In this document: positions 2,460-54,293 of the stretch, one piece after another
How positions within the stretch are numbered: position 1 is the first letter of the stretch
How the letters are laid out: each line of letters begins with the position of its first letter
Assembly (NCBI GenBank): GCA_013287265.1
Contig: JABDEC010000005.1
Location: 265-64,264 of the forward strand
Source of the DNA: Candidatus Babelota bacterium
GTDB lineage: Bacteria > Babelota > Babeliae > Babelales > JABDEC01
Direction of reading: 5' to 3'
Length of the DNA stretch: 64,000 nucleotides
Made by a program: the position numbers and the translations under genes
Notes under the pieces: model-generated
Database searches by the model: none
What the model was told of the DNA's origin: nothing
What the model saw: the letters and a program-made list of their open reading frames with translations, nothing else

Positions 2460-5486
<3,027 letters not shown>

Positions 5487-22203: not shown

Positions 22204-22276
22204 AAGCCTATTTTGATTGACTTTCGTCGAATTAGATATATTATAAAAAATATTATTTTTTACTTAGGGACTTAAA

Positions 22277-23683
22277 ATGATTTTTTCAAGAATTCTCTTA
22301 TCTTTTTTATTTATCTTTAATTGCTTTTCTTACTCACCACCTTTCAATTTTGACGAAGAAATTCATTGGAATTGGAATGACATAGATACGTCTAAATTAG
22401 TTTTTCCAAAAAATTTTTTATGGGGCGTTGGAACTAGTGAATATCAGGTTTCAGGCAGAGAAAATTGCCCTAATGCAAATTGGGCATTTCATGAGGATAA
22501 AAAGAATTTTTTTGGGTGCACAACAATAGCAAGAGGCGAAAAATCAGGAAAAGCTTGTGACCATTGGAATTTATATAAAAAAGACATTGAATTAATGCAA
22601 GAAGTTGGAGTTAATGCATATAGATTTTCAATTGAATGGAGTTGCATTGAGCCAAAAGAAGGTGAATTTAACGAGCAAGCAATAAAGCATTATCATGATC
22701 TTATTGATGCTTTATTAGCAAAAAAAATACAGCCGATGATTACTTTGCACCATTTTACTCATCCTCAATGGTTTGAAGAAAAAGGAGCTTTTGAAAAGAG
22801 TGATAATATTCAATATTTTGTACGGTTTTGCAAAAGAATGTTTGTTGAATATAGTTCAAAAATAAATTTCTGGTTAACAATTAATGAACCTGGCGTTTTG
22901 GTATTTCAGGGTTATCACAGAGCGGTTTATCCTCCACAAAAAAATAATTTTCATTTGGCAGGAATTGTTACAAAAAATTTAATGAAAGCGCATATTGAAG
23001 TTTATAAAGCTTTAAAGGCTTTGCCAGATGGTGACAAAGCTCAAATTGGAATTGTGCATGATATTGTTCAATTTGAACCATATTTTAAAGGCGATAAATT
23101 AGCAAAATTTATTCTACATTATATGAATTTAATCTTTCATGAAGCCATAACAGATTTTTTAGTTACAAAAAAATTGAATTTTAAAATTCCAATATTTGCT
23201 AATGTAGAATTTGAGCTTGCAGATAAAAATGAAAAAATATTAGATTTCATCGGCTTAAATTATTATTCACATGTTTTATGGAAGCCTACAAATCCTTTAG
23301 GTAGTTCATACCGTGAAGGAGATATTCCAACCGATATGCCATACGGAATTTATGCTGAAGGTTTTTATCGCGCAATTGCATCTGTTGCAAGAATGGGTGT
23401 GCCAATTTACATAACTGAAAATGGTTTGGCCGATTCAAAAGATGATCGCCGAGAAATATTCTTGAAAAAATATTTATATACACTTTCAAAAGCTATTAAT
23501 GATGGTTATGATATTCGTGGTTATTTTTACTGGTCATTAATTGATAATTTTGAATGGGATTATGGTTTTGAAAAAAGATACGGTCTTTATGAAGTTGATT
23601 ATAATACTTTTGAAAGAAAACAAAGAAAAAGCGCGCAATATTATATCAAAGTTCTTAAAGATTATTTTTCAAGTTTAAATTAA
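22277..23683 (+). CDS. glycoside hydrolase family 1 beta-glucosidase with signal peptide
   Basis: YRFSIEW, LTINEP (acid/base Glu), YITENG (nucleophile Glu), WSLIDNFEW. Confidence 0.9.
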   Translation: MIFSRILLSFLFIFNCFSYSPPFNFDEEIHWNWNDIDTSKLVFPKNFLWGVGTSEYQVSGRENCPNANWAFHEDKKNFFGCTTIARGEKSGKACDHWNLYKKDIELMQEVGVNAYRFSIEWSCIEPKEGEFNEQAIKHYHDLIDALLAKKIQPMITLHHFTHPQWFEEKGAFEKSDNIQYFVRFCKRMFVEYSSKINFWLTINEPGVLVFQGYHRAVYPPQKNNFHLAGIVTKNLMKAHIEVYKALKALPDGDKAQIGIVHDIVQFEPYFKGDKLAKFILHYMNLIFHEAITDFLVTKKLNFKIPIFANVEFELADKNEKILDFIGLNYYSHVLWKPTNPLGSSYREGDIPTDMPYGIYAEGFYRAIASVARMGVPIYITENGLADSKDDRREIFLKKYLYTLSKAINDGYDIRGYFYWSLIDNFEWDYGFEKRYGLYEVDYNTFERKQRKSAQYYIKVLKDYFSSLN

Positions 23684-26228: not shown

Positions 26229-27377
26229 TTAATTTTCTGAATTTTTTAAATATTTATCAAAGAATGACACAATATCTTGTTTTGCAAGTTTAATATCTTT
26301 ATTAACTTGCCCAGAAGATGCATCAACATCTACATCAATGAATTTTGATAATATTTGTGTAAGAAATGTTTGGTTCAAAAGTAATGGTATATCCGAAAAT
26401 GCTGCATGTCCCAAATTTTTAAATGTTTTAAAAGACATGTTCATTCCAGGAAGATTACTAAATCTCATAAGTTTTTCAAAATCTTGTTGGCCTTGCTCAT
26501 CTCGCCATTGATGACTTTTTTGGCCAATAAGTTCTAAAAATGGAGTTGGAAAAGTTCTTAAATTATCATTAAGCATTATTTGGCTATCTAATGCCACCCC
26601 TGCTTTAATGCGTTTATCATCTAAACAAACTAGCATGGCTAAAGAACCAGCAAATGAATGGCCACATATTCCTATCTTATTTAAATCAAGTTTATTGCGT
26701 AATGGCCAGGAAACGTCTGAATCAAGTTGAAGCAATTTATCTAAAACAAATTTATCATCTTGTATTGCTATAAGTACCTGTTCATTTTTCCAATTTCTCC
26801 AAACACTTTTGCCTTCTTTCTTTTTTGCATTTATCAAACTCCTAACAACTCTGCCATCTGGAAATCTTGTTATTGCTGCCATATAAGGATGATTAATTCC
26901 AACAACAATATAACCTTGGCTTGCAAGTTCTTCAGTAAGCCAAGTGTAGTGTTGCGCCATTGTATTTGAAGCATTAGAAATAATAATGACAGGATAAGTT
27001 TGCTTACTTTGACTTATATTTTTATTTTTTTGAGCATAAGTTTTTGTATATTTCAAATTATTTAATAACCAGATAGGAATTCCACTATTTTGACTGACAT
27101 ATTCTTGTATATTAGTGATGGCATCTTTATCATACAATGTTTGAGCTTTGTTTATTTTTGAATCAATTGGATACCAAATGTGCAGCATAAGCTCACGATT
27201 TGAATTTTTATTATTATTAGATTCAATTCTGCTTTTATCAATTAAATATTGATCTATTTCTCCAACTCCATATCTTCCAGTTGGTTGAGGGAAATTATTT
27301 AAATTAAAAGTTATTAAAAAATAAACAGAAATAATACCAATTATTGCGATGAGTACATATAATTTCATATTTAACAT
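26229..27377 (-). CDS. alpha/beta hydrolase, PAF-acetylhydrolase-like lipase/esterase
   Basis: GICGHSFAG nucleophile elbow; N-terminal membrane anchor or signal. Confidence 0.6.
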   Translation of the reverse strand: MLNMKLYVLIAIIGIISVYFLITFNLNNFPQPTGRYGVGEIDQYLIDKSRIESNNNKNSNRELMLHIWYPIDSKINKAQTLYDKDAITNIQEYVSQNSGIPIWLLNNLKYTKTYAQKNKNISQSKQTYPVIIISNASNTMAQHYTWLTEELASQGYIVVGINHPYMAAITRFPDGRVVRSLINAKKKEGKSVWRNWKNEQVLIAIQDDKFVLDKLLQLDSDVSWPLRNKLDLNKIGICGHSFAGSLAMLVCLDDKRIKAGVALDSQIMLNDNLRTFPTPFLELIGQKSHQWRDEQGQQDFEKLMRFSNLPGMNMSFKTFKNLGHAAFSDIPLLLNQTFLTQILSKFIDVDVDASSGQVNKDIKLAKQDIVSFFDKYLKNSEN

Positions 27378-27643: not shown

Positions 27644-28051
27644 ATGAAAAAATTTCACTTACTTTTAATAGCAATATTTTTTAATCAAATTCAATCTTCA
27701 GAAATAAATAGAAAAATAACTTTAATAAATCATGATTATAAATACACAAAATTAGTATTGTGCGGCTCAACTTGGAAAATAAAAGAATTAGATGACATGA
27801 TTTGCAAAATTGAGAGAGAAGAAAAAGACAAAAAAATCATTTACACAAAATATTCAACCAAAAAGAATTCACAAGATTGGTACAAATCAGAAATGGCTAT
27901 TTCAAATAAATTTGGTGATGGAACTCATTATTACATGCGAGATGGCGACTGGTGCCAAAGTTTTGATTATATTAATAAATATTGGAAATTAGTTTATGAA
28001 TTTGAAGACCTTAAAGAAAAATATAAGCTACTTTTAAAATCAAAACTTTAA
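27644..28051 (+). CDS. hypothetical secreted protein
   Basis: Signal peptide MKKFHLLLIAIFFNQIQS. Confidence 0.55.
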   Translation: MKKFHLLLIAIFFNQIQSSEINRKITLINHDYKYTKLVLCGSTWKIKELDDMICKIEREEKDKKIIYTKYSTKKNSQDWYKSEMAISNKFGDGTHYYMRDGDWCQSFDYINKYWKLVYEFEDLKEKYKLLLKSKL

Positions 28052-28054
28052 ATC

Positions 28055-28852
28055 TTAAATAATTTGCAATTTCGTTTCTCTATCTACAATCAACGGGTGC
28101 GTACTAAATTTATTAAACAATCTTGCCAATGAGCTCTTGTAATAATTATCGGAACACATTCTTTCAATTTTTGCGACACCAGTAATAAGGTCTTTTTTAT
28201 TTGGAATAAATTTAGCAGCAAAAGCATCAGCTTCAAACTCACAACTTCTTGAAACAGACATTAATCTTAAAATACTAATTGTAGATGCAGATAAACTATA
28301 AAGAGCAACCAATCCAATTTTTTTAGCCATACTTACTTCATATTTATTAGCTAAAAGACCAACTGCTAAGCCTGCAAAACAATCAATTAAATTTGTTCCG
28401 ATTAAATTATAAAATTTCTTTTTTGGATGCATAAATTTAATATGACCTAATTCATGCGCTATTATTGCATGTAATTCTTCAAAAGTTAATTTTGTTAATA
28501 ACTCTTCACCAATACTTAAAATCATTGCATTTTCTGATAATCCATTGGCAAAAGCATTTAATCTCATATCTGCGCCAAAACGTTCAGAAGTTTTTTTTGT
28601 AGCTTCATTCCCTTTAAAAATTACAGCAAAAATGTTTGCTTTAATTTCCATCTTTTGCATCAAGTTTATGATAACATTGCACAAAGTTGGGTTATAAGTC
28701 TGATTAACCTGAACTGCTTCAGCTTTTGATAAATCTTGTGAAGTTAATAATGATTGATACTCCGATTGAATTTGTCTGAGTGTTTCAGAATTATCTGAAG
28801 ACACAATATTTGTAAAATAACTGATTGCTAAGAATAGAAATAATTTTTTCAT
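28055..28852 (-). CDS. M48 family zinc metallopeptidase
   Basis: HELGHIKFMH (HExxH) with downstream hydrophobic segments. Confidence 0.75.
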   Translation of the reverse strand: MKKLFLFLAISYFTNIVSSDNSETLRQIQSEYQSLLTSQDLSKAEAVQVNQTYNPTLCNVIINLMQKMEIKANIFAVIFKGNEATKKTSERFGADMRLNAFANGLSENAMILSIGEELLTKLTFEELHAIIAHELGHIKFMHPKKKFYNLIGTNLIDCFAGLAVGLLANKYEVSMAKKIGLVALYSLSASTISILRLMSVSRSCEFEADAFAAKFIPNKKDLITGVAKIERMCSDNYYKSSLARLFNKFSTHPLIVDRETKLQII

Positions 28853-30832: not shown

Positions 30833-31282
30833 CTATAATTTGGCAGTCGTCTTTATTTGATTTTCACTTTGATACATACGCTGAATTGCTTCAAAATCTT
30901 GTTTTCCATTTTTTGATCTATATATTTTATTATCTTTTTTAATCACACAATGATATTCATTAGTTTCTTTATAATATTGACAACTTATATATCCATCCGT
31001 GATTGAAGACCAATAAATAATGCAGGCATCACTTTCATCTTTTGTAATATTTTTTGCTAACCCTAATGGCAAATAATCAATTTTAGAAAAATATATATCT
31101 TCATCTTTAGTACGCGCTATTTCTTGAATAATGTTTCCTAAAAATTCTGCTTCATCCAAAATAGTTAAAACTTCTTTTTGAACGCCTTCAATCGATTGCT
31201 TCTTTTCTTGTTCAGGCAAATCGGCCGAATTAATAATTTGAAATATAGTTATCGATAAAACTAAAGATTTTATAAATTTCAT
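30833..31282 (-). CDS. small secreted protein (same superfamily, ADLPEQEKK subfamily)
   Basis: ISCQYY...YHCVIKKDNKIYRSKNGKQDFEAIQRMY; close paralog of 32896-33507. Confidence 0.65.
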   Translation of the reverse strand: MKFIKSLVLSITIFQIINSADLPEQEKKQSIEGVQKEVLTILDEAEFLGNIIQEIARTKDEDIYFSKIDYLPLGLAKNITKDESDACIIYWSSITDGYISCQYYKETNEYHCVIKKDNKIYRSKNGKQDFEAIQRMYQSENQIKTTAKL

Positions 31283-31297
31283 TCTTTTCCTATAAAT

Positions 31298-31639
31298 TTA
31301 TTTTGGACTTTGATTATTATAAAGTCTTTCAAGTTTATAAAAATAGAAGCTTTCACAATTTTCTTCGTCGGTCATAGAGCCGCGCTTAAAACTTATGATG
31401 CAACTAATTAAATTTTTTTTAAGATATTTTGTACAATATATTAGATGTTTATTTTCTAATCTTGCATGGTAACAAATAAATTGTTCATTTTCTTGCTTAT
31501 CAATTTTACCAATAATTTCTTTACCTTTTACAGTTCTATCAATCTTTGCAATTTCTTCTTTCTGTTTGTTATCCATTTCAGCAGAAAATGCAAAATTATT
31601 TATTATCAATAATAAAGTTAATAATTTTAAAAATTTCAT
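31298..31639 (-). CDS. small secreted protein (NNFAFSAE subfamily)
   Basis: MKFLKLLTLLLIINNFAFSAE leader; ...FYKLERLYNNQ. Confidence 0.65.
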   Translation of the reverse strand: MKFLKLLTLLLIINNFAFSAEMDNKQKEEIAKIDRTVKGKEIIGKIDKQENEQFICYHARLENKHLIYCTKYLKKNLISCIISFKRGSMTDEENCESFYFYKLERLYNNQSPK

Positions 31640-31648
31640 AATTTAACC

Positions 31649-31999
31649 TCAATTTTTTTTCGAATTTTGTTTATTATAAAGTCTCTCAAGCATATAAAAA
31701 TATGACTTGTTACATTTTTTGCTTCTTATTCTAGAAGAGTGTTTAAAGCTAATTGAACAATCAATTAAATTTGTTTTAAGAAATTTTGTGCAAATTATAC
31801 TGCAATTATTTTCTAAATTTGCATTATAACAAATAAATAGTTCATTTTCTTGTCTGTAAATTTTACCGACAATTTCTTTACCTTTTATAGTTCTATCAAT
31901 TTTTGAAGTTTCTTCTTTCTGCATTTTTTTATCTATTTCAGCAGAAAATGCAAAATTATTTATGATAAATATGAGAATCAATAATTTGATAAATTTCAT
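31649..31999 (-). CDS. small secreted protein (NNFAFSAE subfamily)
   Basis: MKFIKLLILIFIINNFAFSAE leader; ...FYMLERLYNKQ. Confidence 0.65.
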   Translation of the reverse strand: MKFIKLLILIFIINNFAFSAEIDKKMQKEETSKIDRTIKGKEIVGKIYRQENELFICYNANLENNCSIICTKFLKTNLIDCSISFKHSSRIRSKKCNKSYFYMLERLYNKQNSKKN

Positions 32000-32099
32000 A
32001 TAACCCCTATTGTAAAAGCGATATTATTTATGATAATAACACTATAATTTTTATTGTCAAATAGAAATATTTATAAGAATAAGCCTGATCGCTATGATT

Positions 32100-32477
32100 T
32101 TAATCTGAATTTTCTTCATTATTTTGTTGATCATAAAGAAATTCTAATCTCGCAAAATAATCTTGTTCTCGTTCTTCTTCATCTTCTTCTTCACCCAATA
32201 GCGAAAACTTTTTATTTTTAAATATGATACAAGCATAATCAGTTTTATCGTTTGTCACCATTTTTGAGCAACTAATCTGAGCGGGAACATTTTTAAAATC
32301 AACCACTGTAACTTCATATGAAATATTTTGACCTTCTACTGTTTTTTTAATCTTGCTTATTAATTTTTTACCAAATAGATAAATTTCTTTTTCTTTTGAA
32401 GCTTTTTTATCTGTCTCTGCAGAAAATGCAAAATTATTTATTAACAATAAAAAAGTTAATAACTTTAAAAATTTCAT
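32100..32477 (-). CDS. small secreted protein (NNFAFSAE subfamily)
   Basis: MKFLKLLTFLLLINNFAFSAE leader; ...YFARLEFLYDQQ. Confidence 0.65.
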   Translation of the reverse strand: MKFLKLLTFLLLINNFAFSAETDKKASKEKEIYLFGKKLISKIKKTVEGQNISYEVTVVDFKNVPAQISCSKMVTNDKTDYACIIFKNKKFSLLGEEEDEEEREQDYFARLEFLYDQQNNEENSD

Positions 32478-32878
32478 AACTTACCCTTAGTTATAGGTTT
32501 CGCATCTTTTTGTGGGTCTATTTCAGGGTATCGTGCTATAAGATGCCGCATTAAATAATCGGGATCTAGTTCATTTTTGTTATCATCCCAAGCCATCCAG
32601 AAATTAAAACCGACACTTAAATCTAAGGGATCCAAATGATCTTCTTTTAATGATTCCTTCGATTTATTCAAATCTTTTTTCTTTAATTTGGTCTTGTCGT
32701 TTTTTAATTCACGAAGTAACACTTTTGCCAATCTTTTGTTAGCTTTCCCATGTTCGTTCGCGCTATAAGAAACTTCCCGACCCTCTTCAATTTTTTCTTT
32801 ATTTTCACTATCTGGTAAATCTGCAGATTTGATATTTTGTATTATGACTACAAAAGTTATTAATTTTAAAAATTGCAT
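32474..32878 (-). CDS. small secreted protein (FxFW-x-AWDD family)
   Basis: Signal peptide; FNFWMAWDDNKNELDP; ATGA overlap with the downstream gene. Confidence 0.6.
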   Translation of the reverse strand: MQFLKLITFVVIIQNIKSADLPDSENKEKIEEGREVSYSANEHGKANKRLAKVLLRELKNDKTKLKKKDLNKSKESLKEDHLDPLDLSVGFNFWMAWDDNKNELDPDYLMRHLIARYPEIDPQKDAKPITKGKL

Positions 32879-32895
32879 AATTATTCCTATATTTT

Positions 32896-33507
32896 TTACA
32901 GTTTTTGAAATTGGTCAATATTCCATCCCATTGGAATAAAAGGGCCGGTTGCATTAAGTTCTATCGAACTTTCATCCTTAACAAATTGATATAACACAGC
33001 ATATTGAGCTTTTTGTCTTTCATACATACGTTGTATAGTTTCAAAATCTTGTTTGCCATTTTTTGCTCTATATATTTTATTTCCGCTCTTAAGTGTGCAA
33101 CTATAATTATTAATTTTTGTATAAAATGCACAACTTAAATCACCATGCGCTGTTGTCGCCGTATAGATAATTACAGGTATAGAATCATTCACAATTTGAT
33201 GAATATTTTTTACTGACCCTATATGCAAATGATCTACATCAAAAATAATATCATTTTGAAAATCTGAAATAGATTCTTTTATATCATCTATTTCTTCTGG
33301 CCTTGGATCAAGATAAAATTTTGTTCCTGGTTTAATCAATTTTGTAATAGCTTCTTTCAACTTATCATGCTCTTCTTCTTTTGTTAAATCATCCAAATCT
33401 TTTTGGGCCCCTTCAACTAATGTCTTTTTTTCTTGCTCTGGCAAATCAGCTGAATAAATATTTAAAGATAGTAAAAAACTTAAAATTAAAATTATTTGAA
33501 TTAACAT
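32896..33507 (-). CDS. secreted protein (ADLPEQEKK subfamily)
   Basis: ATG 33507 has an aggggat RBS (the track start 33537 is TTG); LSCAFY...YSCTLKSGNKIYRAKNGKQDFETIQRMY. Confidence 0.6.
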   Translation of the reverse strand: MLIQIILILSFLLSLNIYSADLPEQEKKTLVEGAQKDLDDLTKEEEHDKLKEAITKLIKPGTKFYLDPRPEEIDDIKESISDFQNDIIFDVDHLHIGSVKNIHQIVNDSIPVIIYTATTAHGDLSCAFYTKINNYSCTLKSGNKIYRAKNGKQDFETIQRMYERQKAQYAVLYQFVKDESSIELNATGPFIPMGWNIDQFQKL

Positions 33508-33539
33508 ATTGTCTTGATCCCCTATAAAATTTTTCAAAA

Positions 33540-35302: not shown

Positions 35303-35692
35303 TTAATTAATAATACAGCCAGAGCTGTCACCATTTTTATTTTGATCTGAATTTTGTTGATTATATAAACTTGCTAACCTAGCATGATGATCTTCCGCAT
35401 TATTCAAACCCAAAGAAATTCCATCTTCTTCTAATAATTCACAAAAATAAAATATACTATCATCATTTTCCCGTTTTATTTTACGGCAAGTAATCGCAGC
35501 ACGCCAGTGGTTATCAAGTGAAGAACGATAAGTCACATTTGGTTCTTTTCCGAATTTTTCAATAATGCCAGTTAATTGGTACCCGGCTATATAATTTACA
35601 TTTTTTCCCTTTTCAGATTTTTTGTCTATTTCTGCAGAAAATGCAAAATTATTAACGAATAATAATAAAATTAACGTTTTTAAAAATTTCAT
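35303..35692 (-). CDS. small secreted protein (NNFAFSAE subfamily) ending in GCIIN
   Basis: MKFLKTLILLLFVNNFAFSAE leader; ...HARLASLYNQQNSDQNKNGDSSGCIIN*. Confidence 0.65.
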   Translation of the reverse strand: MKFLKTLILLLFVNNFAFSAEIDKKSEKGKNVNYIAGYQLTGIIEKFGKEPNVTYRSSLDNHWRAAITCRKIKRENDDSIFYFCELLEEDGISLGLNNAEDHHARLASLYNQQNSDQNKNGDSSGCIIN

Positions 35693-35700
35693 TTTTTACC

Positions 35701-36255
35701 TCATGATTTCAAAGTGATTTCAAACTTCCAATTATCATTATAATTATTTGGTGCAATAAATTGAATCAAGTCGCAATTTTTAATATTGAAATTTTCAATT
35801 TTTGCATAATAACAAATTGCCCAAAATGTTCCTGAATGAGCAATAATTAATGATGAATTAGAATTTTCAAGACAAGAATTTATCCCATTTAAAGTTCTTC
35901 GGAAAAACAGTTCTTTGGTTTCGCCATTTGGCGGATAAATTTGGTCAATATTTTCTATATTTAATGAATCCCATCTTTTGTTTTGCCAATTTCCAAAATG
36001 CCATTCTTTTAAATTATCAACTTCTTGTTTAAAGATCTCTTTATCTTTAAAAATAATTTCTGCAGTTTCTCTAGCGCGTAACAATGGACTGTAAAAAATC
36101 TTATCAAAAGTGATTTGTGAAATTTTAGATTTTAACTTTATTGCTTGATTTTTTCCATTATCATTAAGGGGAATATCTAATTGTCCCATGCATCTATTTT
36201 GAGAATTCCAATCAGTTTCTCCGTGACGTACAAAATAAAATGATTTTTTAATCAT
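35701..36255 (-). CDS. histidine phosphatase (phosphoglycerate mutase family)
   Basis: FYFVRHGETDWN catalytic motif. ATG 36255 is preferred, 4 nt after the upstream stop; the track start 36288 overlaps. Confidence 0.8.
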   Translation of the reverse strand: MIKKSFYFVRHGETDWNSQNRCMGQLDIPLNDNGKNQAIKLKSKISQITFDKIFYSPLLRARETAEIIFKDKEIFKQEVDNLKEWHFGNWQNKRWDSLNIENIDQIYPPNGETKELFFRRTLNGINSCLENSNSSLIIAHSGTFWAICYYAKIENFNIKNCDLIQFIAPNNYNDNWKFEITLKS

Positions 36256-36259
36256 TGAT

Positions 36260-36673
36260 TTAATTAATAATGCACCCGGCATCTTCATTTTTTTTTGAAT
36301 TCTTTTTATCTCTTAATAATTGATTTTGTTTGTAAAGCTCAGCACACAATTTCGCTTTTTCCTTGTCCATTCCATCAATCATTTTACCCCCAGCATAATT
36401 AATCCAAGCTTGTTTCTGTACGCTTGCAGGTAATCCTCGTATGCCATTGCAAAATGTTTTGGCTGGCTCAGGCAGTTCTTCAACTCCGCATTTTTCAAAA
36501 TTTTTGCAATCTTCTTCATATTGTTGGATTACAGCATCCAAATATTCATCACTGACACGCTCTGAATTATCGTATACTTTCAATGGATTTATTTCATTAT
36601 TAGATCCTAATTCAACTTCTTGAGAATTAATTAAATTTATTTGTAAAAAAAATAATAACAAAGTTTTTTTCAT
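36260..36673 (-). CDS. small secreted protein (GI-x-x-LP..VQ.KAW family) ending in GCIIN
   Basis: Signal peptide; GIRGLPASVQKQAW ... AELYKQNQ ... KKNSKKNEDAGCIIN*. Confidence 0.65.
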   Translation of the reverse strand: MKKTLLLFFLQINLINSQEVELGSNNEINPLKVYDNSERVSDEYLDAVIQQYEEDCKNFEKCGVEELPEPAKTFCNGIRGLPASVQKQAWINYAGGKMIDGMDKEKAKLCAELYKQNQLLRDKKNSKKNEDAGCIIN

Positions 36674-36720
36674 AACTTTTTTCTTTCAATTTCAATAAAA
36701 CCATTTATTTTTACTATAAT

Positions 36721-37992
36721 TCATTTTATTCGCTTAAAAATGTCTTTATCAAAGATCTTAGCAATATATGCATTTGAAAAAATATCATTCGGGTCTAATC
36801 GTTTTTTCACTTCAATAAAATATAATAGGTTGTCACCATAGAGTGCGAATGCTTTCTCATAATCCAAGAAATGATTTTTTCCCCAATGTGGGCGTCCCTT
36901 TAATGTATACATGCATTGTTCAAAGTCCTGCAATACTTCATAATAACGCTGGTCTACAACAGTATTTATATTTAAAAATATCACATCATAGTCTGCACAT
37001 GGACTTAAATACGCATGTTGATCAGCTTTTGCAAAACGACCGTTTATATAAGAAATCTCTTTACCATTATGTTGCCATTTTTGCACAAAAGCCTTGATAG
37101 TCTTCATTGCTTCTGATAGTAGATCAACAGAAATTGCAATTTCTGAACAAAGTACGGGGCCGCATATCTTCCCTTTTTCACATGCCAAAGCTTCATAACT
37201 ATACTGTACCGATTCCGACACAGGCGCATCAAAAGAAACTCGATTCCAAAATTCAATAATAGCCATATTTGTTTTGGCATTCCAACGAAACTGAAAAAAA
37301 TTATTTTCTTCATGAAGTTGTTTAAAACGGACTATCAAATCATCTATACTAATACTGCTTTTACGATATTCCAATTTAAAAAGAGATTCACATTGTAAAG
37401 TAATTGAATATAGAACACCTAAAGTACCCAAACTAACACATGCAGCATGAAAAGCAGATACATCACTATCAAGCGAAAGCCGATGTATGACACCGTCAGC
37501 AGTAATCAGTTCCATTTGAGTAATAAAACTTGATATTGTCCCAGTATGTCCTGTGCCATGAGAAGCTGTTGCTATAGCCCCACCTAATGTTGGCTCTGTT
37601 ATTGATATAAGATTAGAAAGCGCTAGATTATGTTGTGCAAGCAATGTGCTCAGTTTTTCTAAAGTAATACCAGCTTGTACAGTTACTTGCTGTTTAGCCT
37701 GATTAATAGAAATGATTTCATTTAAATTTTTTAAACTTATTAATAAATCATCACAGCATGCAATATCGTTCAATGAATGACCAGAACCGATAACCCGAAT
37801 TTTGTGATTTTTTTGTGCTGCATCGGTTATAACTGCTATTAGTTCATCTTTTGTTCGAGGGCTCATAATAGTACCACTACATGCATAGTTTTCAGACCAA
37901 TTGTGCCATGTTGGAGATCCTCCATTAATCAGATTAACAATAAGCATCAAAGAACTGATAATAGGAACACGAGTATCCATTCTCCTCCTCAT
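36721..37992 (-). CDS. FAD-linked aldonolactone oxidase (L-gulonolactone / D-arabinono-1,4-lactone oxidase family)
   Basis: PCMH-type FAD-binding N-terminal half (RVIGSGHS) and GRPHWGK motif of the ALO C-terminal domain. Confidence 0.75.
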   Translation of the reverse strand: MRRRMDTRVPIISSLMLIVNLINGGSPTWHNWSENYACSGTIMSPRTKDELIAVITDAAQKNHKIRVIGSGHSLNDIACCDDLLISLKNLNEIISINQAKQQVTVQAGITLEKLSTLLAQHNLALSNLISITEPTLGGAIATASHGTGHTGTISSFITQMELITADGVIHRLSLDSDVSAFHAACVSLGTLGVLYSITLQCESLFKLEYRKSSISIDDLIVRFKQLHEENNFFQFRWNAKTNMAIIEFWNRVSFDAPVSESVQYSYEALACEKGKICGPVLCSEIAISVDLLSEAMKTIKAFVQKWQHNGKEISYINGRFAKADQHAYLSPCADYDVIFLNINTVVDQRYYEVLQDFEQCMYTLKGRPHWGKNHFLDYEKAFALYGDNLLYFIEVKKRLDPNDIFSNAYIAKIFDKDIFKRIK

Positions 37993-38005
37993 TTTATAAG
38001 GTCTT

Positions 38006-38268
38006 TCTCATAAAACATTTTTTATGGCTGGGCAATTTTTAATTCTACTAAATAATAATCCCTATCGGAACCAAAGCTCAATTTTTTTGCCCAAGTTGTC
38101 GGATAGTTTTTTAAATCTGACGGCATTAATTTTTTAATATTATTAACATTAAAACCAAATTTTTCTAATTTTACAATGCATCCAAAATTGGCAATTCAAG
38201 ACGATCAATCTCTTTTTTTTCGTGTAAAATGTTATAATCGAAAATTATATGTATAGTAGCATTTGGTT
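38006..38268 (-). pseudogene. decayed 3' fragment of a second copy of the 40017-40679 methyltransferase gene
   Basis: Aligns by eye with 40024-40308 (long identical runs such as ctactaaataataatccctatcggaaccaaagctcaattttttt gcccaagttgtcggatag), with an internal deletion and substitutions. Confidence 0.75.
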
Positions 38269-38289
38269 CCAGTCTCAATAAAATATTTT

Positions 38290-38760
38290 CTAATTAATTA
38301 TACAACCCGAACCTTCATTCTTTTTTGAATTTGTAACTTTAATCATGGTGTCTGGTTTGTTTTGATATATTTTTGCTAAGTTTTGAGCTTTTTGATGCCA
38401 CATTCCTTTTGCAAATTTTTCATAATGATAATGTCTCCAGGCTTTTATTTGAACTTCATCAGGCAAATTTTTTATTCCAGCCACAAAACGATCTTCGGCT
38501 CTTTCAAATTCATAAGCACCATTTTCTTCACTTACAGCATCTGCTAAATGCGATGACCAATGATTTTCTTTGACGACTTGCTCATAATCTTCTTGCAAAT
38601 CATATTCAAGTTGCGGTTCATCATCTAATTTTTTTGTTAGAAATGCAGGCAAATCTCTCTTTTCCTTGTTTTCAGCTTCTTGATCAAAATCTTGATCTGA
38701 ATCGAAAGAAAAAATTTGCAAAGTTAACAATAAATTAAAAAAAATTAGAATTCTTTTCAT
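38290..38760 (-). CDS. secreted protein (GI-x-x-LP..VQ.KAW family) ending in GCIIN
   Basis: ATG 38760 gives MKRILIFFNLLLTLQIFS; GIKNLPDEVQIKAW ... AKIYQNKP ... NSKKNEGSGCIIN*. Confidence 0.65.
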   Translation of the reverse strand: MKRILIFFNLLLTLQIFSFDSDQDFDQEAENKEKRDLPAFLTKKLDDEPQLEYDLQEDYEQVVKENHWSSHLADAVSEENGAYEFERAEDRFVAGIKNLPDEVQIKAWRHYHYEKFAKGMWHQKAQNLAKIYQNKPDTMIKVTNSKKNEGSGCIIN

Positions 38761-38782
38761 ATGTTCCTGATAATTTAATATT

Positions 38783-39931
38783 TTATCCAATTCCATAGAA
38801 TTTTTTTGCATTTGAAATCATGGTATCAAATTCTTCTTCATTGGGAGTAGATTCATCTGCATTTTCTATAAAAGTGCCACCTACAACGCCAATATCATTA
38901 GCTTCTGCATTTTCTAATTGTTTTGGAAAAATATAAAAAGATCTTTTTACTTTTTGGCCATTTTTATTTTTTGATTCATCAAAATAAACTAACAACATAT
39001 AATTCAAATCTTTTGGTTCTTGATCTTTTAACATAATAAGATGTCCTTGCACTGAAACCATTTTGTTATCATTATTAAGATTTTTAGATCCTAAACCTGA
39101 GCAATTAATAATATATTTTGTCTCAATCTCAGAAAATGAATTAACATGCTTTTTTTCAAATTTCACCAATGGTTTTAAATATTTATTTAGTTCTGTCATT
39201 AATTTTGGAGTATTTACAAAAATTCCATCGTCATAACTCACCATTACTTGAGTTTTTCCGTTTGAAAAATCCAGAACAACATCCTTTGCAGGTTGCATTA
39301 CTTTTCCAACATATGGTTCTAAACCAGATTCTTCGCGATTTCTAAAATATGTAGGAACAATTATTGCTCCATCTTTTATTATTGAATTTTGATTTTTTGC
39401 AATTGATTCATAAAATTTATACGCATCAATTCCAACTTTTTCAATTACGTTTTGAATATCTTTTAATCTTGGATCATTATCCATAGAAACTGGAGCAATT
39501 AAACCACCAGCATTATGTGAAGTTAAATTTTCTGTTTTATCCGCAACTATAGTTAGGTTCGTAAAACCTTTATTAACTAGATCATAAGCGGTAAATAAAC
39601 CTAAAATACCAGCACCAATGATTGTAATAGGAGTTTCTTTAGTTATTTCAGGACATTTTTTTAATAATAAATCATTTACATAATTAGCTGAGCCAGGCCC
39701 GAGAGTCCAACCACTTCCGCCATGACCATAGTTATGAGCTACAACTTTATCACCTAAAAATTCAACTTCCATTCTTGGACATTCTCTTCTCATTGGTCTG
39801 TAGCAAAGAATTTTTTTGCCTAAATTTTCTTCATTTAATTTTGGAGGAATGATTTTTCTTATTTCAATTTCAGATAAAAGTAAGCAATTAATAGCGAGTA
39901 ATAAAGAAAATGAAAAATGTTTGAATTTCAT
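38783..39931 (-). CDS. D-amino-acid-oxidase-like FAD flavoprotein, apparently circularly permuted, with signal peptide
   Basis: RPMRRECPRMEVEF..VAHNYGHGGSGWT (normally C-terminal in DAAO) precedes the ITIIGAGILGLFTAYDL dinucleotide fold. Confidence 0.7.
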   Translation of the reverse strand: MKFKHFSFSLLLAINCLLLSEIEIRKIIPPKLNEENLGKKILCYRPMRRECPRMEVEFLGDKVVAHNYGHGGSGWTLGPGSANYVNDLLLKKCPEITKETPITIIGAGILGLFTAYDLVNKGFTNLTIVADKTENLTSHNAGGLIAPVSMDNDPRLKDIQNVIEKVGIDAYKFYESIAKNQNSIIKDGAIIVPTYFRNREESGLEPYVGKVMQPAKDVVLDFSNGKTQVMVSYDDGIFVNTPKLMTELNKYLKPLVKFEKKHVNSFSEIETKYIINCSGLGSKNLNNDNKMVSVQGHLIMLKDQEPKDLNYMLLVYFDESKNKNGQKVKRSFYIFPKQLENAEANDIGVVGGTFIENADESTPNEEEFDTMISNAKKFYGIG

Positions 39932-39992: not shown

Positions 39993-40057
39993 TTAGAAAT
40001 TACTTTAATATTTTTTTCATAAAATATTTTTTATGATTTGGCGGGCAATTTTCAATT
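39993..40057. repeat. 65-nt segment shared with 42047-42110 (3' end plus downstream of two unrelated genes)
   Basis: ttaga(a/t)attactttaatatttttttcataaaatattttt(t)atgatttggcgggcaattttcaatt; differs by one T and one substitution. Confidence 0.85.
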
Positions 40058-40679
40058 CTACTAAATAATAATCCCTATCGGAACCAAAGCTCAATTTTTT
40101 TGCCCAAGTTGTCGGATAGTTTTTTAAATCTGCAGGCATTAATTTTTTAATATTATTAACATTAAATCCAAATTTTTCTAATTTTGGAATAAACATATTT
40201 TTAAAATATGCTTCATTTAAAATTGGCAATTCAAGACGATCAATCTCTTTTTTATCATGTAAAATGTTATAACCAAAAATTATCTGTATAGTAGCGTTGG
40301 CTTTGCAAATCTTTTTAATGTTTTGCCACGTCAATTCATTAACTGCCACAACTCCTTGTAATAAAGTACCCCATGGAAAATTAATATAAATTTTATCCGC
40401 AATGTTAATTAAATCATCAGGCAAGTTTTCAACGTTAGTCAATACGAATATTAAATTAGATAAACCACCTTTAGCCGGTTTTTTTAAAGCCTTGGCAGAC
40501 GTCTCAATTAAGTTTTCATGACAAGTATCAATACCTATCACAAACTTATCAGGATTTTGTTTTGCAATTTGATATGCGAATGTACCGTCTCCGGTACCAA
40601 TATCGACAATAGTTGATGATCAACGTCAATGATCACTTAGATTTAATTCAACTATTTTTTTACTTTGAATAACCTTCAT
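40017..40679 (-). pseudogene. 16S rRNA (adenine1408-N1)-methyltransferase-like gene (NpmA/KamB family) with two in-frame TGA codons
   Basis: Single frame from ATG 40679: MKVIQSKKIVELNLSDH*R*SSTIVDIGTGDG...FPWGTLL...WAKKLSFGSDRDYY. TGA at 40626-40628 and 40620-40622. Confidence 0.7.
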
Positions 40680-47862: not shown

Positions 47863-48216
47863 ATGAAAAAATTAGTTTTGTTAATGATTTTTGCGTCCTC
47901 ATTTGCGTGTAAGCTTGTGAGTTATGAATATTCACATAGAGCTTTACCAGATGAAGGTTGTTTGGATGTTTGTAGGAGTGTTATTAGGGACATTACTTAT
48001 ACAAATCTAAAAGCAAGAATTGCAATTGGTAAAGGGTATGGAGAGAATCCTAAACCTAATAGGTGCACATATCATTTTAATAATGGATTGCGTTCGCATG
48101 ACCTTGCAGTAGGAAGAATGGCGGCTAACCGAAATAATTGTATGAATAGAATCACAACCCGAACTGGTCCACTTAATTCAGATGGTACCAAAACGTGTTA
48201 CTGTGTTATTCAATAA
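47863..48216 (+). CDS. secreted basic cysteine-rich protein, array member 1
   Basis: aaggag RBS, signal peptide; CLDVC...RCTYHF...NCMNRI...CYC. Confidence 0.7.
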   Translation: MKKLVLLMIFASSFACKLVSYEYSHRALPDEGCLDVCRSVIRDITYTNLKARIAIGKGYGENPKPNRCTYHFNNGLRSHDLAVGRMAANRNNCMNRITTRTGPLNSDGTKTCYCVIQ

Positions 48217-48243
48217 TTAAATGAAAAAATATAGAGAACAATT

Positions 48244-48594
48244 ATGAAAAAATTAATTTTGTTATGTGCATATTCGTTTGTTTTCAATCTTGTGAGTTAT
48301 GAATATTCACATAGAGCTTTAGCAAGTGAAAATTGTTTGGATGTTTGTAGGAGTTTTGTTAGGGATATTTCGTATACTAACTTACCGGAACAAGTAATAT
48401 GTCGTAGTAGAGCTTACTGTGACAATCCTAACCCTAATAGATGCACATATCATTTTCATAGAGGATTACGTTCACACGACCTTGCAGTAGGAAGAATGGC
48501 GGCTAATCGAAATAATTGTATGAATAGAATTACGAGCCGAACTGGTCCACTTAATTCAGATGATACCAAAATGTGTTATTGTTTTATTCAATAA
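48244..48594 (+). CDS. secreted basic cysteine-rich protein, array member 2 (close paralog of member 1)
   Basis: CLDVC...RCTYHF...NCMNRI...CYC; long identical stretch HDLAVGRMAANRNNCMNRIT. Confidence 0.7.
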   Translation: MKKLILLCAYSFVFNLVSYEYSHRALASENCLDVCRSFVRDISYTNLPEQVICRSRAYCDNPNPNRCTYHFHRGLRSHDLAVGRMAANRNNCMNRITSRTGPLNSDDTKMCYCFIQ

Positions 48595-48617
48595 TTAAGG
48601 GAAAAAAAGAGTTAACG

Positions 48618-49001
48618 ATGAAAAAATCAATTTTGTTAATGACCGCGATTTGTTTTTTTAATTTGAATTTATTAATGAGTGAGGTGCCGCTTGATCGTGT
48701 AGGGCCAAATGAATTTCTAATCACTGTCGCACAGCATGATAAATGTAGAGATGCTTGCAAGAGTTTTTTGGATGAAAATAATGTAGGTGTTCGTTATGGC
48801 ACTCCTGGAAGTAATAATCATTTTTGTGATTGTAATTTAAAATCATATTTGGGCAGACGTTTGCCATCTAGGTCAATTAGGACACATTATAATGCAACAA
48901 AAGCAGAATGTGTGAATTTATGTAGAGATAATTTAAGAAATGTGAGACCAAGAACTGATACTAATACAAGAACAAATATTTGTACTTGTAGGATTGGATG
49001 A
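48618..49001 (+). CDS. secreted basic cysteine-rich protein, array member 3
   Basis: ATG 48618 gives MKKSILLMTAICFF; CRDAC...CDC...CVNLC...CTC. Confidence 0.7.
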   Translation: MKKSILLMTAICFFNLNLLMSEVPLDRVGPNEFLITVAQHDKCRDACKSFLDENNVGVRYGTPGSNNHFCDCNLKSYLGRRLPSRSIRTHYNATKAECVNLCRDNLRNVRPRTDTNTRTNICTCRIG

Positions 49002-49016
49002 AAAAAAGGAATAAAA

Positions 49017-49406
49017 ATGAAAAAATTCATTTTTTTAGTAGTTTTTGTATTTAATATAAATATTTTTGGTATTTCAGTGATTCCGCGCGCTGGACGTTCA
49101 GGTAGATTTGAAATCACAATTCATAAAAATGAAAATTGTGACTTTCATTGTAAGGATGCTTTAGATGTAAATAATGTCAAATTTATAAACCGCTTCCAGT
49201 TGCCAGGTGATCGTATTAGGGACAACTGCTATTGTAATCTTACGAGAGGAAGAAATTTGCCAGCAGTCATTTTGCAAATTCCAGTGTATACAGCCTCAAG
49301 AGAAAGGTGTGCGGAAGAATGTAGAAAAAGATTAAAAAGTATAGGCGAAAAAGTGGATGTTGCGACAGGTACAAAAACTTGTACATGTTTTAATGGAGCG
49401 CTTTGA
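49017..49406 (+). CDS. secreted basic cysteine-rich protein, array member 4
   Basis: CDFHC...CYC...CAEEC...CTC. Confidence 0.7.
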   Translation: MKKFIFLVVFVFNINIFGISVIPRAGRSGRFEITIHKNENCDFHCKDALDVNNVKFINRFQLPGDRIRDNCYCNLTRGRNLPAVILQIPVYTASRERCAEECRKRLKSIGEKVDVATGTKTCTCFNGAL

Positions 49407-49421
49407 AAATAAGGAATAAAA

Positions 49422-49751
49422 ATGAAAAAAATAATTTTGTTAGCAATTGTGCTTTGTTCATTTAATTTTAAAATATTAAATTGCAGAAATTTTAGAATTC
49501 ATGAACACCGGATTAACCCAAAGGATGATTGTACATATTTCTGCAAGAATCAGTGGTTCAATGGCGCCAGTGCCAGCGCCACCACTAATCATTGCACTTG
49601 CCATTTTAGATTTGGTGAACCACAAATGCGTGTAAACACAGGAGCATCCGGCGTGGGATGTACTGCTTTTTGTAAAAATAGAATAAGATTGGAAAAGGAA
49701 AGATTTGACTCAGTTAATAATAAAAAAATATGTACTTGTGTTTTTGATTAA
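49422..49751 (+). CDS. secreted basic cysteine-rich protein, array member 5
   Basis: CTYFC...CTC...CTAFC...CTC. Confidence 0.7.
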   Translation: MKKIILLAIVLCSFNFKILNCRNFRIHEHRINPKDDCTYFCKNQWFNGASASATTNHCTCHFRFGEPQMRVNTGASGVGCTAFCKNRIRLEKERFDSVNNKKICTCVFD

Positions 49752-49761
49752 AGGAATAAAA

Positions 49762-50061
49762 ATGAAAAAAATAATTTTGTTAATGATTGTGATTTGCTTT
49801 TTTAATTTCAAAACATTTGGTGGTGATTGGAATGTAAGAAATTCGAATTGTCAAAATTCTACCATTAGAATTCTAGAATGGGATGCGCATGGGTGTGTAT
49901 TTACAATAAATGGTCGGCGAAGAAGCGTTCGATTGCCACGGCATCAATGTTTTAACTTGGATTTTTTGAGAAGTAGAATTTGTACTAGAAAAAGTCGATC
50001 GAATCCAGACGGTTCCATAACCCATACATGTTATTTTAATACAAGTGGACCTTGTCATTGA
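49762..50061 (+). CDS. secreted cysteine-rich protein, array member 6 (divergent)
   Basis: ATG 49762 follows aaaggaataaaa as for member 5; signal peptide; six Cys but no CxxxC. Confidence 0.6.
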   Translation: MKKIILLMIVICFFNFKTFGGDWNVRNSNCQNSTIRILEWDAHGCVFTINGRRRSVRLPRHQCFNLDFLRSRICTRKSRSNPDGSITHTCYFNTSGPCH

Positions 50062-54098: not shown

Positions 54099-54293
54099 GC
54101 TCCATCCTATGCTTAAAAATGATATTAATAAGACAAACTTTATTCTCATAACTTTTAATGTATCAGATTTATTTTTGAAAAATTAAGAATATATAAATTC
54201 TTTATGAGTTCTCTTGACAAATTGAATAAAAATTATACAATCAATTATATATTATTTTTACCAGATAATTATTTTTTATTTCAGTGGGGAAAT

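Follow-up and report, generated by a model that had tools for sequence, protein, structure and literature searches.

Why should three small secreted proteins of a bacterium end in one and the same pentapeptide, Gly-Cys-Ile-Ile-Asn (GCIIN)? This question is raised by a group of minus-strand genes in the stretch of 64,000 nucleotides that we analysed (the window). Because this end resembles a eukaryotic lipid-anchor tag, the parasite may borrow the lipidation machinery of its host, and an earlier, sequence-only reading of the window had compared it with the CaaX box of prenylated proteins. The window belongs to Dependentiae/Babeliales, in that all named homologues of its PheT are Candidatus Babeliales or Dependentiae. 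We came across no paper in which Dependentiae are connected with CaaX or prenylation.

A C-terminal module on two orphan protein families

The first GCIIN protein (129 aa; 35303..35692, minus strand) is a member of a family with an NNFAFSAE leader. The second (137 aa; 36260..36673, minus) belongs to a family characterised by GI..LP..VQ.KAW, and the third (38290..38760, minus) is its paralog with 38% identity. For protein 3, the open reading frame 38290-38811 encodes 173 aa, but the likely start is Met18 at 38760, which gives a protein of 156 aa. The sequences of all three reading frames bear out that they terminate in GCIIN and a stop, and that the Cys, followed by two aliphatic residues, stands exactly four residues from that stop. 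Additional in-frame stops lie 2-5 codons beyond the first one in each gene, such that the proteins are not extendable by read-through. Among the 76 open reading frames of at least 80 aa in the window, GCIIN is the sole C-terminal 5-mer common to any of them, while the expected number of triples with any common C-terminal 5-mer is 1.6e-7.

What had been described as a shared pentapeptide is present as such, but the common element is longer than these five residues. It is a module of 21-26 aa, [LI]Y-x-Q-N ... N-[SQ]-x-K-N-[EG]-x-x-(x)-GCIIN, that sits on two otherwise unrelated folds. On the minus strand, it reads LYNQQNSDQNKNGDSSGCIIN in protein 1 (35306..35368, with the GCIIN codons at 35306-35320), LYKQNQLLRDKKNSKKNEDAGCIIN in protein 2 (36263..36337, GCIIN codons 36263-36277) and IYQNKPDTMIKVTNSKKNEGSGCIIN in protein 3 (38293..38370, GCIIN codons 38293-38307). 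An hhalign comparison of the NNFAFSAE family with the pair formed by proteins 2 and 3 aligns the C-terminal 22 columns only, in agreement with the earlier assignment of the three proteins to two separate families.

The tail codons are GGC TGT ATT ATT AAT TAA in protein 1, GGG TGC ATT ATT AAT TAA in protein 2 and GGT TGT ATA ATT AAT TAG in protein 3. Proteins 2 and 3 are identical at 11/13 of their last 13 residues, as compared to 40/121 (33%) over the remainder, and where the residues are identical, synonymous codon differences are seen at 4/11 positions of the tail and at 17/37 positions elsewhere. Thus, the tail codons have diverged like those of the remainder while the amino acids have stayed nearly the same, which upholds the claim of conservation at the protein level as opposed to recent DNA copying, and indicates from the codon pattern that the tail is under purifying selection as a peptide.

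All three proteins have N-terminal Sec-type signal peptides, which were also checked heuristically. These do not make them N-terminal lipoproteins, as the signal peptides lack the lipobox Cys (criterion: [LVI][ASTVI][GAS]C closing the N-terminal signal peptide), and the [AS]-G-C that is present is found at the C-terminal end and not within a hydrophobic segment. The proteins gave no Pfam matches, no PDB fold match at E <= 0.001 and no homologues except themselves among 5.8e9 and 1.84e9 proteins searched, so that both families are orphan; the GCIIN tail was found nowhere beyond these three genes in the searches made, a point against farnesylation by a host. In its AlphaFold model, protein 1 has a six-strand beta sheet (pLDDT of the folded domain about 90), a helix at residues 99-119 and a low-confidence tail at 121-129. 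For protein 2, whose model is poor overall (mean pLDDT 54), a helical domain is predicted with a tail at 128-137. In both models the last 9-10 residues, which come after the terminal helix, have a pLDDT <50, and for this reason the tail is probably disordered, with a C-terminus that would be exposed and flexible. The tail Cys is odd or unpaired in 3/3 proteins: it is the single Cys of protein 3, the fifth of protein 2 and the third of protein 1, whose paralogs keep just two conserved Cys.

The tail as a possible CaaX box

As a criterion for a CaaX box we used PROSITE PS00294, C-{DENQ}-[LIVM]-x>, which is matched by 3/3 GCIIN proteins with Ile at both a1 and a2 and the stop directly after X. 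The ends of the yeast proteins Ras2 (-CIIS) and Ras1 (-CIIC) have the same C-I-I-X geometry behind a flexible hypervariable linker that contains Lys. The GCIIN proteins, however, are not GTPases, are of bacterial origin and carry N-terminal export signals, and we know of no Ras protein with Asn as X. The likening of the Lys/Asn-rich linker to the polybasic region of small GTPases was only partly apt, since, as read from the sequences, the 15 residues that precede the tail Cys carry a net charge of +2 in proteins 1 and 2 and of -1 in protein 3. This weak polybasic character counts against farnesylation by a host.

Asn is not known as an X residue of the GGTase-I type, and the sequence-only reading had noted as a caveat that it is non-canonical. 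This caveat can be judged by proxy from a yeast Ras-reporter screen of all 8000 CXXX motifs, in which class means and the motif CAIN stand in for CIIN and for a protist enzyme. According to the available part of that report (PMC10320760, File S4), the grand mean enrichment is 0.80 and the cutoff for high values is 1.31, whereas the class with a2=Ile and X=Asn has a mean of 6.44 and the class with a1=Ile and X=Asn a mean of 3.15. CAIN itself scores 13.7 (Ras_HM) and 5.6 (Ydj1_HM), within the range of CAIL, CAIT and CAIV, and a2=Ile is the strongest positive determinant in the screen (same source, as far as available).

Dependentiae are described as strictly intracellular in protists, in the part of PMC12172432 available to us, and the cultured member Chromulinavorax (C. 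destructans) is located in the host cytoplasm (PMC6561590). It is in such a setting, judged at the level of the phylum, that the GCIIN proteins may meet a cytosolic eukaryotic prenyltransferase. The Sec signal peptides had been listed as a second caveat. They are present in 3/3 proteins, but their weight is lessened by the fact that in C. destructans signal peptides are found on 44% of CDS and on 78% of ankyrin proteins (PMC6561590). Both caveats are thus weakened, the one by the yeast data on X=Asn and the other by the abundance of signal peptides in Dependentiae. C. destructans has inner and outer membranes, i.e., Dependentiae are diderm (PMC6561590), and therefore an additional export step would be needed after Sec. 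Among those open reading frames of the window that were scanned with Pfam, there were no secretion-system genes.

We put at about even the chance that the GCIIN proteins are Sec-exported effectors that are farnesylated by the host. In this proposal, a Dependentiae bacterium that lives in obligate association with a host would export small proteins by Sec. These would carry a flexible GCIIN tail that mimics the eukaryotic CaaX box, and would be released from the bacterium into the cytoplasm of the protist host. The host farnesyltransferase would add a farnesyl group to the lone tail Cys, Rce1 and ICMT of the host would then probably cut off -IIN and methylate the new C-terminus, and the lipid and the Lys/Asn-rich linker would together pin the differing N-terminal domains onto host membranes. 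The sequence-level features of a CaaX box that were open to testing are all present, whereas export past the periplasm, contact with a host prenyltransferase, lipidation and the targeting role are steps that we infer.

CaaX-like ends in related genomes

A sample of 20-kb stretches around pheT from eight related genomes contains four further orphan families with signal peptides that end in CLIM, CSIQ, CVIF or CNIS. The first of these ends is carried by an ankyrin protein (L147), which terminates in KGSCLIM. Two proteins (L149 and L150) both end in KKNNCSIQ, one (L143) in FECVIF and one (L156) in KSSCNIS.

In a positional control over offsets 1-30 from the C-terminus in ten loci, from which L156 was left out, the CaaX-like pattern has 9 matches at the true C-terminus (4 in relatives, 5 in the window) as compared to about 0.43 expected, an enrichment that rests on about 5-6 independent families and on a stricter pattern picked after the matches were seen. 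All of these matches (9/9) are signal-peptide proteins. The CaaX-like ends in other Dependentiae contigs lend independent support to the CaaX reading of the GCIIN tail. Against it stands that a Cys at position -4 also arises structurally: every sampled genome has a ComF with the end CRV[VTI], and a Cys-rich family at 47863-50061 of the window ends in CxC at a variable distance from the C-terminus.

The tandem paralogs of the CLIM protein bear NLS-like KKRKLEN tails instead. A wider reading, to which we give somewhat less than an even chance, is that Dependentiae address their Sec-exported effectors with interchangeable C-terminal eukaryotic motifs, and that paralogs swap tails by module shuffling. 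CaaX ends (CIIN, CLIM, CSIQ, CVIF, CNIS) would then direct proteins to membranes, KKRKL to the nucleus and perhaps SKL/AKL to peroxisomes.

Readings of the tail that do not involve host lipidation

GCIIN may also be a lineage-specific bacterial tag for sorting, processing or anchoring, read by a peptidase, transpeptidase or lipid transferase of the periplasm or envelope with no host enzyme involved. This we consider unlikely, though it has several points in its favour. As all three proteins have Sec signal peptides, the periplasm is the first compartment in which the tail is exposed; the [AS]-G-C (as read from the sequences) is similar to lipobox positions -2/-1/+1, and the same island contains, at 28055-28852, a gene for an exported M48-family peptidase. 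Furthermore, the three copies do not vary at Gly -5, at the two Ile or at Asn -1. This is stricter than a farnesyltransferase needs and is more in line with a specific enzyme than with a prenyltransferase, which is permissive; such invariance would fit a dedicated recognition partner and counts against host farnesylation.

However, no known bacterial C-terminal signal finishes three residues past its key residue. LPXTG, PEP-CTERM and GlyGly-CTERM require a following transmembrane helix, and type IX secretion (T9SS) requires a folded C-terminal domain. In the GCIIN proteins only three residues come after the Cys, and the 15 before it are hydrophilic. By the criterion of a motif with a hydrophobic helix and a basic tail behind it, or of a folded C-terminal domain of 70-100 aa, LPXTG/sortase, PEP-CTERM, GlyGly-CTERM and the T9SS CTD were all rejected as identifications of the tail. 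The ends found in the relatives (CLIM, CSIQ, CVIF, CNIS) vary among themselves, as one typically sees in eukaryotic CaaX boxes but not in a dedicated bacterial tag. Nor does a candidate enzyme adjoin the GCIIN genes, which have FAD oxidases and a histidine phosphatase next to them. An FAD_binding_4/ALO-type oxidase with an export-like N-terminal signal (36721..37992, minus) lies immediately upstream of GCIIN gene 2, and a DAO-family FAD oxidoreductase with a signal peptide (38783..39931, minus) immediately upstream of GCIIN gene 3. The histidine phosphatase (His_Phos_1; 35701..36255, minus), which is without a signal peptide, lies between GCIIN genes 2 and 1, and its likely start, MIKKSFYFVRHG, is 4 nt past the stop of gene 2.

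Less plausible still is that the lone Cys acts as a free thiol which, in the oxidising periplasm or in the extracellular space, forms an intermolecular disulfide or another thiol adduct, and in this way dimerises the proteins or links them to a partner or a surface. An unpaired Cys on a low-confidence, probably disordered end of proteins that are exported, according to their signal peptides, is what one would look for in such a case. A role of this kind leaves the exact -4 position, the two aliphatics and the canonical ends CLIM and CSIQ of the relatives unexplained, however, and a disulfide role seldom fixes all four flanking residues.

We hold it to be very unlikely that the module is functionless, having spread by recombination among the genes of the island and been retained as the end of a helix-linker. 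Some observations do speak for it. Three NNFAFSAE paralogs (31298-31639, 31649-31999 and 32100-32477; together 31298..32477, minus) keep the LY.QQN helix end and lack GCIIN; LY.QN...NSKKN is thus also present in paralogs that do not carry the pentapeptide, and the second of them terminates directly after NSKKN (NSKKN-TGA-GGT-TAA). The island has also undergone segmental rearrangement: a degenerate copy (38004..38263, minus; 85% identity, with deletions of 22 nt and 4 nt) of the 3' end of an NpmA-like methyltransferase gene (40013-40298) is present, and the two methyltransferase 3' copies flank the pair of DAO and GCIIN gene 3 as a 280-bp direct repeat. The interval from the S51 peptidase gene to murB spans 33 kb here as compared to 4 kb in one syntenic relative. 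Against a functionless module stands the fact that synonymous sites are as diverged in the tail as elsewhere while its amino acids are nearly invariant, which requires selection on the peptide.

Release or cyclisation of the C-terminal pentapeptide from a RiPP- or pheromone-like precursor, e.g., as a thiolactone like that of AgrD peptides, is hardly credible in spite of a Cys few residues from the C-terminus and adjacent FAD-dependent oxidases, given that these are folded domains of 110-140 aa with Sec signal peptides (in proteins of 129-156 aa, with the high pLDDT of protein 1), that the ring would have 4 residues and not 5, and that Pfam shows no RiPP maturase, AgrB-like or radical-SAM enzyme near the GCIIN genes, where DAO, ALO and His_Phos_1 are found. 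The criterion here was a short leader-core peptide that lacks a Sec signal and has a maturase gene beside it.

Relation to known effectors and implications

Returning to farnesylation by the host, AnkB of Legionella and SifA of Salmonella are host-prenylated CaaX effectors targeted to host membranes. Likewise, the available parts of PMC13081727 and PMC13423502 describe the Pel proteins of Legionella pneumophila and GtgE of Salmonella as CaaX effectors that are lipidated by host farnesyl- or geranylgeranyltransferase. The GCIIN proteins share with the Legionella and Salmonella effectors a Cys-aliphatic-aliphatic-X end on otherwise unrelated, lineage-specific proteins, some of which have ankyrin repeats. 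They show no similarity to them in sequence or fold (Pfam, PDB fold search), and they differ in phylum, in having Asn as X and in the threefold reuse of one pentapeptide. Furthermore, the Legionella and Salmonella effectors are injected by type IV and type III systems and have no Sec signal, whereas the GCIIN proteins bear Sec-type signal peptides. In this respect they resemble Sec-dependent effectors such as the SAP proteins of phytoplasma, the Sec-delivered effectors of Liberibacter and the ankyrin proteins with signal peptides of Chromulinavorax (PMC6561590 and the available part of PMC12845134), i.e., orphan proteins of small size that have no export feature except the signal peptide and for which a role inside the host cell is presumed. 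For these, no CaaX lipidation is known to have been described, and the diderm Dependentiae would need the extra export step.

To our knowledge, the only bacterial proteins known to be prenylated by a host come from a few proteobacterial pathogens, which inject their effectors through type III or type IV systems, and we know of no functionally characterised effector from the Dependentiae (TM6), a phylum that is widespread and parasitises protists. If the GCIIN tails are farnesylated, host prenylation would reach the Dependentiae, and with them proteins that bear no export signal besides a Sec signal peptide. A signal peptide combined with an exact C-terminal C-a-a-X would then offer a simple handle on host-directed effectors in a very large secretome; the same handle would predict the destination of these effectors in the host, and it would raise the question of their passage across the outer membrane. 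Should the reading of C-terminal motifs as interchangeable addresses be true as well, host prenylation would be a strategy in wide use within a major uncultured phylum, independent of type III or type IV injection.

The GCIIN tail and its conservation

Three minus-strand ORFs, 35303-35692 (GCIIN-1, 129 aa), 36260-36673 (GCIIN-2, 137 aa) and 38290-38811 (GCIIN-3), terminate in Gly-Cys-Ile-Ile-Asn followed by a stop codon. For GCIIN-3, the start is most likely Met18 at 38760, which gives a protein of 156 aa and agrees with the database entry P0001. Because extra in-frame stops follow within 2-5 codons of each GCIIN stop, the proteins cannot be extended. Read directly, the ends and stops bear out the claim of the sequence-only reading that three secreted proteins share this terminus. 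The window has 76 ORFs of 80 aa or more; among them no C-terminal 5-mer other than GCIIN occurs on more than one ORF, where 1.6e-7 chance triples with any common C-terminal 5-mer would be expected.

The tail is encoded by GGC TGT ATT ATT AAT, GGG TGC ATT ATT AAT and GGT TGT ATA ATT AAT. GCIIN-2 and GCIIN-3 are identical at 11 of their last 13 residues, as opposed to 40 of 121 elsewhere, and the codons at identical residues differ in 4 of 11 cases in the tail and in 17 of 37 in the rest. Since the tail codons have diverged like those of the rest while the peptide is near-identical, the tail is of the same age as the genes, and its conservation is due to selection on the peptide and not to recent DNA copying, as the synonymous codon differences had been taken to indicate.

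The conserved element exceeds five residues and consists of [LI]-Y-x-Q-N, a linker that is rich in Lys and Asn but varies in sequence (NSKKNE twice, NKNGD once) and x-x-GCIIN. GCIIN-1 belongs to a family named after its leader, NNFAFSAE, and GCIIN-2 and GCIIN-3 form a second, paralogous pair. A profile-profile comparison of the two gave an alignment limited to the C-terminal stretch, which argues for a single module on two otherwise unrelated domains and confirms the earlier division into two families. The NNFAFSAE paralogs at 31298, 31649 and 32100 stop at the LY.QQN/NSKKN stage, without GCIIN. One of them (31649-31999, minus strand) ends in NSKKN-TGA-GGT-TAA (31649-31663), stopping where the GCIIN proteins go on with E-x-x-GCIIN, and this end may be a truncated former tail.

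The AlphaFold model of GCIIN-1, with a pLDDT of ~90, has a helix for the signal peptide, a sheet of six strands and a C-terminal helix at residues 99-119, followed by a low-confidence tail at residues 121-129. The GCIIN-2 model is helical, has low confidence overall and falls below pLDDT 50 at residues 128-137. Judging from these models, the GCIIN tail is probably disordered. A PDB fold search with the GCIIN-1 model returned nothing at E <= 0.001, and there were zero Pfam matches for all three proteins. The tail Cys is an odd, unpaired Cys in each of the three (the sole Cys of GCIIN-3, the third of GCIIN-1 and the fifth of GCIIN-2), and the GCIIN-1 paralogs conserve exactly two Cys.

Occurrence of the tail beyond the window

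The exact GCIIN tail was not found beyond the window in proteins or in viral and JGI metagenome contigs. No homologues other than the window's own were found for the GCIIN-2/GCIIN-3 family (alignment query in a word-indexed search of 5.8e9 proteins) or for the NNFAFSAE family (full HMMER search of 1.84e9 representatives); P0006, the sole extra match in the homologue searches, is an unrelated repeat protein. At the DNA level, the pattern N-x3-GCIIN-stop had 43 matches in viral contigs, and KN-x3-GCIIN-stop had 18 in JGI metagenome contigs (the window's contig is not among these), all of them off-frame chance matches in ORFs of at most 60 aa. The tail DNA, searched at 80% likeness in the sole run carrying the locus, retrieved only the locus itself, and no further copies were detectable.

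However, four further signal-peptide orphan families with CaaX-like tetrapeptide ends were found in ~20-kb pieces surrounding pheT, taken from eleven loci of eight related genomes. These are an ankyrin protein (L147:3303-4217) ending in ...KKIKEEPKGSCLIM (CLIM), the protein L149:13378-13905 and its ortholog L150:14654-15181 (89% identity), both ending in ...KKNNCSIQ, L143:8973-9872 with the end ...KKKGKTVNKNDKRWMWPFVFECVIF (CVIF), and L156:14354-14830 with ...QDKSSCNIS. The CLIM protein, whose end is a canonical CaaX box, is one of four tandem signal-peptide paralogs (L147:1004-4217) that have a common C-terminal domain and alternative tails; Pfam ankyrin matches are recorded for two of the four, 2576-3322 and 3303-4217. 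Its three paralogs end in SKKRKLENIES, EKRKLENIES or SKRRKLDNNDHQNL, and by their sequence these K(K/R)RKL(E/D)N tails look like nuclear localisation signals. The presence of paralogs with and without a CaaX end parallels the NNFAFSAE family, with and without GCIIN.

As a positional control, the CaaX-like pattern was counted at the true C-terminus and at offsets 1-30, in the window and in ten of the relatives' loci (L156 excluded). It occurred at the true C-terminus in 4 of 211 ORFs of the relatives (offset mean 0.33) and in 5 of 72 in the window (offset mean 0.10), and all nine matches are signal-peptide proteins. For the PROSITE CaaX pattern PS00294, the relatives had 12 matches versus 0.60 expected and the window 7 versus 0.20. 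ComF, with the end CRV[VTI], accounts for 8 of the 12 and 1 of the 7; it is oversampled because it is syntenic with pheT and thus present in nearly every locus, and as a housekeeping cytoplasmic protein it was rejected as a false positive. With orthologs and paralogs collapsed, ~5-6 independent events stand against ~0.8 expected, but the events are few and the stricter pattern was defined after the matches were known, such that the excess is suggestive, not conclusive.

The C-R-V-[VTI] end of ComF is found in nearly every sampled Dependentiae genome (window 58992-59657; L145-L156), and in L143 the Cys lies one residue further in. The Cys at -4 of ComF is a built-in false positive for proteome-wide CaaX scans of Dependentiae. 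Six tandem genes at 47863-50061 (plus strand) encode small signal-peptide proteins that are rich in Cys and have no Pfam match; their ends are CYCVIQ, CYCFIQ, CTCRIG, CTCFNGAL, CTCVFD and HTCYFNTSGPCH. Two of these, CVIQ and CFIQ, are formally canonical CaaX boxes, but we do not count the array as a confident second CaaX family, since its last Cys is invariant and probably structural, and lies at differing distances from the C-terminus. Canonical peroxisomal tripeptide ends of the PTS1 type are also present on signal-peptide proteins, SKL at 27644-28051 (plus strand) and AKL at 30833-31282 (minus strand), while 32474-32878 ends in GKL and 32896-33537 in QKL. PTS1-like ends (SKL, AKL) were not enriched, with 3 observed versus 0.78 expected, and up to 3 when the position was shifted.

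The organism and the gene neighbourhood

The window holds a bacterial rRNA operon, has a GC content of ~28%, and its locus is present in one small soil-metagenome run at ~80x depth. Where the PheT matches name an organism, it is nearly always Candidatus Babeliales or Candidatus Dependentiae bacterium (45-52% identity; one is listed as "bacterium" only), and closer relatives reach 57-62%. The gene order near pheT (MurB, rhodanese, LigD, PheT, Lsp, PgpA, ComF) is common to the window and related contigs. Together, PheT matches and gene order place the window in a novel lineage of Dependentiae (TM6), as judged from sequence. PyrG was discarded as a taxonomic marker, because among the matches listed in GTDB genomes it shows ~57% identity across many phyla, and a 16S word search returned environmental runs only. 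In the window, LigD phosphoesterase and primase-polymerase domains are joined in a single ORF of 527 aa (52566-54149) whose start resembles a signal peptide; in the relatives carrying them (L143, L145, L149-L151, L156) they are two adjacent genes.

On the minus strand, each GCIIN gene lies immediately downstream of a gene for an enzyme: GCIIN-1 is preceded by a histidine phosphatase, GCIIN-2 by an ALO/FAD_binding_4 oxidase (36721-37992), and GCIIN-3 by a signal-peptide-bearing DAO-type oxidoreductase (38783-39931). A direct repeat of ~280 bp (38004-38263 and 40013-40298) flanks the DAO and GCIIN-3 pair on both sides, which suggests that the pair came in, or was duplicated, as a cassette. The copy at 38004-38263 corresponds to the 3' end of an NpmA-like 16S rRNA methyltransferase gene (40017-40541), of which it is a frameshifted remnant with 85% identity and two deletions, of 22 nt and 4 nt.

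The interval from the S51 peptidase gene to murB spans 33 kb in the window (16721-51022) and 4 kb in the closest long syntenic relative (L143:1-5356). Orphan signal-peptide genes are found in both, and the extra DNA of the window carries arrays of orphan secreted proteins and many enzymes with signal peptides. Export-like N-terminal signals are carried by usually cytosolic or eukaryote-typical enzymes (36721-37992, 38783-39931, 21061-23683, 26229-27377). Among them are two oxidases, one an ALO-type lactone oxidase and the other of the DAO type, together with a PLP enzyme, a GH1 glycosidase and a PAF-acetylhydrolase-like hydrolase. The leader of the ALO-type enzyme starts with MRRRMDTR and could be a Tat-type signal. 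A soluble M48 peptidase (Ste24/HtpX/BepA family) with a signal peptide is encoded inside the secreted-protein island at 28055-28852 (minus strand).

A candidate CaaX mimic

By its sequence, the GCIIN tail has the form that defines a CaaX box, the eukaryotic prenylation signal. Two caveats had been raised against this, the first being that Asn is non-canonical at the X position. In the complete yeast CXXX screen, the main restrictions on farnesyltransferase (FTase) are D, E, K or R at a2 and K, P or R at X, and a2=Ile acts as a positive determinant with the Ras reporter, which requires farnesylation, aaX cleavage and methylation (PMC10320760). In the heat map of that screen, the class means are 6.44 for a2=Ile/X=Asn and 3.15 for a1=Ile/X=Asn (grand mean 0.80, high cutoff 1.31); CAIN scores 13.7, near CAIL (14.2) and CAIT (14.4) and far over CAIK (6.9), and with a Ydj1 score of 5.6 it tops the CAI-X series (PMC10320760). 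The -IN class thus appears permissive in yeast, which weakens the caveat, with CIIN judged by proxy from class means and CAIN.

The second caveat was that signal peptides leave no evident route to the host cytosol. Dependentiae are described as strictly intracellular in heterotrophic protists (PMC12172432). Chromulinavorax destructans, a cultured member located in the host cytoplasm, has signal peptides on 44% of its CDS and 78% of its ankyrin-repeat proteins, and the Sec system together with outer-membrane vesicles were proposed as its export routes (PMC6561590). The window, which encodes many signal-peptide enzymes, an ankyrin protein and orphan signal-peptide proteins in arrays, fits this picture. 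As signal peptides are usual on the candidate host-directed proteins of the phylum, they are no argument against a host target, which would be reached by a further step across the outer membrane.

The main rival, which we regard as unlikely, is that GCIIN is a lineage-specific bacterial C-terminal tag. The invariant Gly at -5 and Asn at -1 would suit such a tag, as would the periplasm as first destination; however, no signal of such a shape is known, no enzyme for it lies nearby, and the tails vary in a CaaX-like manner between genomes. A role of the tail Cys as a free-thiol tether strikes us as improbable. That the tail is a functionless shuffled module we rate lower still. RiPP-like precursors are a very improbable identity for these proteins.

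Among known systems, the nearest in function are effectors of Legionella (AnkB, Pel proteins) and Salmonella (SifA, GtgE) that are prenylated by the host. The GCIIN proteins fall outside these effector families: they have no homology with them and carry signal peptides, whereas those effectors are defined by type III or type IV delivery without one. No paper joining Dependentiae, Babela or Babeliales with CaaX, prenylation or farnesylation was found in the literature searched.

The best-supported reading, to which we give about an even chance, is that the GCIIN proteins are effectors exported through Sec, with a tail that mimics a CaaX box and is farnesylated by the protist host. They would be released from the bacterial envelope and gain access to host FTase, which would farnesylate the tail Cys, and the lipid may then anchor the differing N-terminal domains on host membranes.
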